NCBI RefSeq assembly: GCF_006345805.1
Contig: NC_043015.1
Span: 14,012,001-14,076,000 of the forward strand
Length of the DNA stretch: 64,000 bases
Origin: Octopus sinensis
Taxonomy: Eukaryota
Direction: 5' to 3'
Positions within the stretch are counted from its first letter, which is position 1. Every line of letters starts with the position of its first letter. The notes beneath the pieces are model-generated. The model was not told the DNA's origin. It searched no databases and was given only the letters and a program-made list of their open reading frames with translations. Positions 36,237 through 36,317 of this stretch are shown here, one piece after another. The position numbers were made by a program, and so were the translations under genes.

Positions 36237-36317
36237 TTTCCTGATGAGAAGGCGGCATAATGCACCCCTTATTCCTTCGAAATTAGGAATATGCAGTCTT
36301 CGAAACATATGTCGAGA
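36237..36317 (+). ncRNA. type I hammerhead ribozyme with a canonical core
   Basis: TTTC-CTGATGA(36241-47)-GAAGGCgGCATA...TATGCaGTCTTC-GAAA(36302-05)C-ATAT-GTC-GAGA; GUC cleavage triplet. Confidence 0.85.

Follow-up and report, generated by a model that had tools for sequence, protein, structure and literature searches.

A type I hammerhead with a long helix II and a palindromic helix III in an end fragment of a Hydra-like Penelope retrotransposon of Octopus sinensis

Penelope-like retrotransposons are known to carry hammerhead ribozymes in their ends, and the role of these hammerheads is unsettled. In the dimer model, as given in the available part of PMC4209133, a single minimal hammerhead motif was left uncut, whereas multimers were cut weakly. 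In PAc, a Poseidon element from Anolis carolinensis, protein was required for the ribozyme to cut, insertion did not need cutting and reverse transcription started at two internal sites, according to the available sections of PMC11167929. Some invertebrate type I hammerheads with 2 bp and a tetraloop in helix III cut well as monomers (PMC7229834, accessible portion), which counts against a strict dimer reading. The Hydra clade is defined by the motifs RWK, DKT, CxCX5C and CxxC/CxH (PMC8557442, section 11), and the accessible text of that paper also proposes that the linker zinc finger is tied to (TA)n targeting.

Here we describe a complete type I hammerhead core at 36237-36317 of a 64,000-nucleotide stretch of Octopus sinensis DNA (hereafter the window), read directly from the window sequence. 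It is likely that this hammerhead belongs to the terminal repeat of a Hydra-like Penelope retrotransposon associated with (TA)n, of which a 352-bp end fragment remains here, and that it cuts after C36313, weakly when alone and mainly when two copies pair via the palindromic helix III or when an element protein helps. The core, helices, context and termini are observed, and from them we infer cleavage and its dependence on a dimer or on protein as the best explanation. The locus comprises the following features:

36094-36165, no strand: (TA)n tract, 5' flank and insertion target (from the sequence)
36166-36517, plus strand: solo terminal fragment of a Penelope-like retrotransposon, that is a 3' UTR end or pseudo-LTR with hammerhead and tail, without ORF (from genomic copies)
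36228-36240, plus strand: 5' strand of helix I, distal part 36228-36233, proximal part 36237-36240
36241-36247, plus strand: catalytic core CUGAUGA (from the sequence)
36248-36301, plus strand: long helix II, 54 nt, unbranched, with 6 bp, a mismatch, 4-5 bp, a one-sided bulge and a terminal hairpin
36271-36290, plus strand: terminal hairpin of helix II, paired as in the youngest subfamily, with A at 36280; in older copies this base is G and the loop measures 3 nt
36302-36305, plus strand: catalytic GAAA (from the sequence)
36305-36312, plus strand: helix III, an 8-nt palindrome, 2 bp and a tetraloop in the monomer and an 8-bp duplex between two RNAs
36313, plus strand: C17, with the predicted cut 3' of it (from the hammerhead consensus)
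36314-36326, plus strand: 3' strand of helix I, including a non-conserved AATAAA (from the subfamily alignment)
36372, plus strand: first common 3' terminus of genomic copies, 35 of 106 ends lying exactly here
36373-36517, plus strand: tail to the second common terminus; longer copies continue for about 55 nt to the ORF start codon
36519-36587, no strand: (TA)n tract, 3' flank (from the sequence)

The motif satisfies the hammerhead consensus of CUGANGA, GAAA and UH, and three helices surround its core, of which helix I is open-ended and helix III has only 2 bp in the monomer. An earlier note on this DNA had picked out CUGAUGA, the segment GAAAC-AUAU-GUC and all conserved catalytic positions, and these are indeed found at 36241-36247 and 36302-36313, where C-ATAT-GTC follows GAAA and ends at C36313. 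It was equally right about the G-C pair closing helix II (G36248-C36301), the 4-bp proximal helix I, in which 36237-36240 pair with 36314-36317 with one G-U, and the insert of about 350 bp (36166-36518) between (TA)n tracts at 36094-36165 and 36519-36587. Helix I resumes past a 3x3 loop, with 36228-36233 facing 36321-36326. The 11 of 12 pairs counted in helix II (36248-36253 with 36296-36301, a G36254/A36295 mismatch, and 36255-36259 with 36290-36294) and the additional hairpin (ATTCCT at 36271-36276, AGGAAT at 36285-36290) are both present, but T36290 had been counted in both. The idea of a branched stem does not hold, as the hairpin is predicted to stack on helix II over a one-sided 12-nt bulge, and helix II is unbranched in the folds of seven relatives too. 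The ATG within the core starts a 25-codon frame (36244-36321), which is missing from CUGAAGA subfamilies and is probably incidental.

Searching its own 2.72-Gb genome with a 161-base query gave 57 matches at 94-100% identity from 40 scored of 1887 first-look candidates, the latter figure not being a copy number. Many copies are arranged as inverted pairs, and solo and short copies are common. At locus L020 a GIY-YIG-like frame and about 450 nt of 3' UTR lie immediately upstream of the insert sequence, the ribozyme segment stands directly downstream in all 25 loci fetched with an endonuclease/3' UTR query, and the order RT, endonuclease, UTR, hammerhead is seen within single loci (e.g. L058, L059, L060, L061, L063 and L090). 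On the other side of the ORF, the last 135 nt of the insert lead into a start codon at loci L077 and L086, an ATG follows 263 nt past C17 at loci L201 and L202, and the whole ribozyme is collinear upstream in 10 of the 20 loci fetched with the 5' end of the ORF. The family of the window copy thus has a pseudo-LTR on both sides of the ORF, a hammerhead in the pseudo-LTR, inverted truncated copies and a tail, and this arrangement is the pseudo-LTR layout of Penelope-like elements. It resembles the minimal hammerheads of PMC4209133, which in the text available likewise lie in pseudo-LTRs, mostly solo or as inverted pairs, and have a short helix I, a G10.1-C11.1 pair and a palindromic helix III, for which the dimer model was put forward. 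A 3.4-kb tandem at locus L089 was rejected as a native tandem, a host-like flank being duplicated along with it.

The 3' ends of the copies gather at two places, 46 of 106 at 36365-36375 and 48 of 106 at 36515-36518, and in the flanks of genomic copies (TA)4 follows the first terminus in 35 of 45 cases and the second in 42 of 46, against a background of 1.9%. The window copy ends at the second terminus and is therefore an end fragment, probably inert. With no copy ending at 36313 or starting at 36314 among the 106 ends, there is no genomic footprint of cutting. In PAc, too, two termini past the hammerhead define a tail, targets are AT-rich and copies do not end at the cut site (PMC11167929, in part). 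Its ORF, however, starts inside the ribozyme, while that of the window family begins about 260 nt downstream of the cut, and the Penelope tail given in the same source measures 30-40 bp, compared with two termini 145 nt apart in the window family. In tandem elements, cleavage would shorten read-through transcripts to unit length. Reverse transcription would likely begin inside the RNA, at two sites that lie 59 and 204 nt beyond the cut, and its templates would be uncut or rejoined; the window copy is probably an early-aborted insertion without function of its own. Judged by eye, window ORFs of at least 110 aa resemble simple repeats or transposon remnants. Contigs from four sequencing runs, presumed to be RNA, cover the insert, although contigs cannot show ends, strand or locus; the unique flank 37690-38100 had zero cover in three presumed-RNA runs and partial cover in one large run. 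None of this cover bears either way on transcription.

The ORF of the family has the motifs YRDD, DKT and RW, lacks CCHH and carries CxxC and CxH around the endonuclease, beside its conserved E and N (by eye). RT motifs and endonuclease share one frame at loci L077 and L083, and no uninterrupted full-length ORF of the family was seen, the longest frame among L058-L092 having 645 aa. Pfam gave GIY-YIG at an E of 0.0007, below its own cut-off, and no RT match for the ORF, and a PDB search with the ORF alignment returned nothing. Database proteins align along the length of the ORF (71 hits at 25-39% identity), and over 264 aa it is 39% identical to an intact element of the same genome with the full Hydra motif set; the intact same-genome elements that align with it show RWK, DKT, CxCX5C and CxxC/CxH. 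Both DKT in place of DKG and the position of copies in (TA)n, judged from flanks, are features of the Hydra clade. RWL stands where the RWK of Hydra aligns, and the Hydra linker CxCX5C before the endonuclease is absent: in 30 of 34 linker reads the 40 aa ahead of the domain are free of Cys, the four with Cys being three off-frame reads and one from another family, and sister families B and C have the same Cys-free stretch where it is visible. Because of RWL and the absent linker cysteines, despite DKT, CxxC/CxH, (TA)n and the hammerhead, we would call the family Hydra-like rather than file it as a Hydra member, a putative placement by motifs in which references were compared by eye. As separate observations, an Octopus bimaculoides relative of the ORF (P0046) is named 'GATA zinc finger domain-containing protein 14-like' and is apparently a mis-annotated Penelope-like RT, and two other Hydra-type families (L113-L117 and L118-L130) have open frames of about 700-727 aa, one with a CCGAAGA core variant and YKDD in its RT and the other with a short hammerhead upstream of the ORF.

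Compared with Hydra elements as described in the available parts of PMC8557442, including Hydra-1_Obim of Octopus bimaculoides, the window family shares the C-terminal GIY-YIG, DKT, CxxC/CxH and (TA)n flanks and, close to the 3' end, a type I hammerhead whose helix III is self-complementary. It differs in its helix II of 54 nt, loops II of 3-10 nt being listed for Hydra in Files S1 and S2 of that paper, in lacking the linker CxCX5C, in having RWL for RWK and Asn-rich inserts, and in a unit estimated at about 3.5 kb, Hydra units being generally under 3 kb in the same source. The hammerhead of Hydra-1_Obim is a different one with an 8-nt loop II, and none of six short motifs of the window family was found in the portion of the PMC8557442 supplement at hand, so that the window family is not Hydra-1_Obim as far as that material goes. 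Two spike-moss PLE-X elements have long loops II in File S2 (in part); a long helix II is therefore not unprecedented in Penelope-like elements, though it is so among the Hydra entries of that file. A literature search on octopus and cephalopod hammerheads, retrozymes and extended stems II found no description of a long-helix-II octopus family, which may be listed in paper supplements. Penelope-like elements with hammerheads in their ends are thus known, and the 54-nt helix II together with the cysteine-free linker is a modest variant.

The hammerhead motif is real and not a chance match. A strict descriptor (helix II of at least 6 bp, helix I of at least 4 bp, self-complementary helix III; thresholds chosen with the window match known) finds 36241 as the sole match in the 64-kb window and none in 200 dinucleotide shuffles, and in its loosest setting it finds matches in 5 of 200. 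The fold z-score of the motif is -1.85, with 12 of 200 shuffles equally good. Rfam reported no family in the whole window at gathering score and no hammerhead in 35500-37000 at E up to 10, a miss that is likely due to the long helix II. Hammerheads tolerate large helix II inserts, and in a relaxed census of the fetched loci we found 21 hammerhead clusters with a helix II of 12-69 nt, 10 of them with at least 38 nt, so that a long helix II is common in this genome. As such a helix escapes Rfam, motifs of this kind are probably under-counted.

The proposed helices pair in 89.5% of cells across 17 distinct rows (helix II in 97.9%), against 41-51% in slid controls, and in 14 hand-chosen subfamily rows the core helices pair in 96.1% of cells, against 28-48%, with 5 of 20 pairs changed on both sides, all numbers to be read with the caveat that rows and clusters are related by descent, so that shuffle controls overstate significance and shuffle counts are not probabilities. 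The both-sided changes fall in helices I and II. Core and covariation support the identity as a ribozyme, but it is one of many near-identical transposon ends, and hammerheads of other families lie in the window. Hence, to speak of the best single ribozyme candidate that could cut its host RNA misses the context, given the many copies, the further hammerheads in the window and the palindromic, dimer-type helix III. Among 77 fetched ribozyme-spanning copies, a set that includes the window copy and is biased towards close copies, 28 are identical to the window over 36241-36313, and position 36280 reads GA in 58 and GG in 15. An A at 36280 loses a pair, and the hairpin register therefore shifts; across subfamilies the ATTCCT/AGGAAT register pairs in 56.9% of cells versus 90.4% for a short-loop register, and the former register, present as it is in the window copy, is a recent variant. 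The AATAAA noticed after helix I is also there (36317-36322), but part of it lies in helix I, and the older subfamilies A2, B and C, which make up 11 of the 18 aligned rows, have AGTAAA throughout; as a poly(A) signal it was ruled out, not being conserved.

The ribozyme is the best-kept block between families, and apart from core position 7, which is U or A by subfamily, the catalytic nucleotides are near-invariant. Among inserted copies, 18 of 25 have an intact core and differences per site are 0.057 in the core versus 0.068 elsewhere; the core decays like the remainder, and inserted copies therefore give no sign of being under selection. In 9 of 10 hammerhead clusters the four innermost bases of helix III form a Watson-Crick palindrome, and five different palindromes occur; a palindrome was not required by the search and is expected about 0.07 times per cluster. 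In the window copy this is the perfect palindrome ACATATGT (36305-36312), absent from the earlier note. The retention of the palindrome in these clusters points to dimer cleavage. An alternative to which we give some small weight is that the transposon RNA keeps the fold for a structural or protein-binding role and can do without cutting. It would accommodate copies that continue through the cut site in both directions, the anole catalytic mutants that had no effect on in vitro insertion, with no reads ending at the site (PMC11167929, in part), and the Naiad elements that spread without canonical hammerheads (PMC8557442, in part). However, the catalytic nucleotides stay near-invariant across subfamilies whose flanks have clearly diverged, and the palindrome covaries, as is expected of selection on cleavage.

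An efficient monomeric ribozyme that cuts a host transcript at the window locus appears less probable still. All of its core positions are intact, helix II is stable in the predicted ensemble with pair probabilities of about 0.7, and hammerheads with a 2-bp helix III can be active in invertebrates, as the accessible portion of PMC7229834 has it. The same fold prediction puts the active fold of the monomer about 4.4 kcal/mol above the ensemble, of which it makes up a rare 7e-4 or so, with pair probabilities of 0.01-0.02 for helix III and below 0.1 for proximal helix I, and the best monomer fold ties the AUG of the core to the palindrome; the decay of inserted copies described above speaks against this alternative too. 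The double hammerhead is predicted at -53.0 kcal/mol compared with -50.8 for two monomers, and a different two-strand fold lies lower than the double hammerhead, at -57.8, these dimer energies being those of single structures and nearest-neighbour energies ignoring Mg2+ and tertiary contacts. The energy of the double hammerhead and the rarity of the active monomer fold fit the PMC4209133 dimer model and the behaviour of the anole element in PMC11167929, as far as the available parts of both go. A cleavage test on a 36200-36340 monomer, as had been suggested, may be negative for a genuine ribozyme, because published Penelope-element hammerheads were uncut as monomers (PMC4209133, in part) or without protein (PMC11167929, in part).

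Cleavage assisted by a second copy or by the element protein also seems preferable to the idea that the 352-bp piece is a non-autonomous retrozyme unit moving as a small circular RNA, which we regard as very unlikely. The size does fall within the retrozyme range, solo and short copies are common, and a tandem 593-bp hammerhead repeat exists in the same genome; non-LTR retrozymes, too, have a type I hammerhead in a short non-coding repeat from a Penelope-like end (PMC7229834; bioRxiv 10.64898/2026.07.22.740005; available parts of both). Unlike those retrozymes, as the same sources present them, the window piece is not tandem and is a truncated coding element: there are no head-to-tail arrays of the unit among L001-L030, where pairs are mostly inverted, the 5' ends grade into the coding element, and copy ends do not match the cut site. 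Finally, a chance match to the hammerhead consensus, for which the Rfam miss and the modest fold z-score might be adduced, has practically nothing left to it, being already ruled out by covariation and by a position expected in a Penelope-like element, with the strict descriptor silent in all 200 shuffles.

Here we speculate, with little confidence, that the octopus Hydra-like lineage might have grown its helix II of 40-70 nt, held by compensatory change, as a docking arm for the element protein, that its ORF might have lost the zinc finger in the linker that is proposed to direct (TA)n targeting and yet still lands in (TA)n, and that palindromic end fragments might pair in trans and cut the host RNAs that hold them once an element is expressed. 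The many families with covarying helix III palindromes constitute a natural test of the dimer model. In addition, the proposed connection of (TA)n targeting with the linker zinc finger, a subject on which our literature search found nothing, is challenged by a family that has no cysteines in its linker and yet has copies ending in (TA)n.

Several other hammerheads and repeats were encountered. A very young family (L164-L166, G000:C10:100717424-100722974; also L158-L160), 99% identical and with a 69-nt helix II hammerhead, is arranged head to tail in units of about 593 bp, of which L165 has five or more in succession, and looks like a non-LTR retrozyme. Within the window, another high-copy repeat forms an inverted pair at 34380-34788, flanked by (TA)n tracts, and its minus-strand hammerhead (core at 34594) has a 38-nt helix II and a different 8-nt palindrome; the same palindrome recurs with a longer helix II in a related hammerhead-like motif at 33770-33860 on the plus strand. 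The hammerhead at 51466 (plus) has a 7-bp helix I, a 52-nt helix II and a third palindrome, and an inverted repeat that encloses (TTA)n/(AAT)n tracts holds a minimal hammerhead with a 4-nt palindrome at 37219-37260 (plus) and, at about 36905-36955 (minus), its partner with a changed core. The high-copy repeat at 34845-36090, present twice about 812 bp apart and tandem elsewhere too, shows CUGAUGA and GAAA at 35183 and 35995, with a third occurrence at 63761 (minus), and its helices could not be closed. An approximately 545-bp tandem with an inverted copy (21755, 22302, 22845 and 23391 on the minus strand, 24125 on the plus strand) has CUGAUGA and a downstream GAAACG in each copy and is possibly another Penelope-derived repeat. 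Interstitial (TTAGGG)n-like tracts are found at 16776-17003 and 49641-49832.
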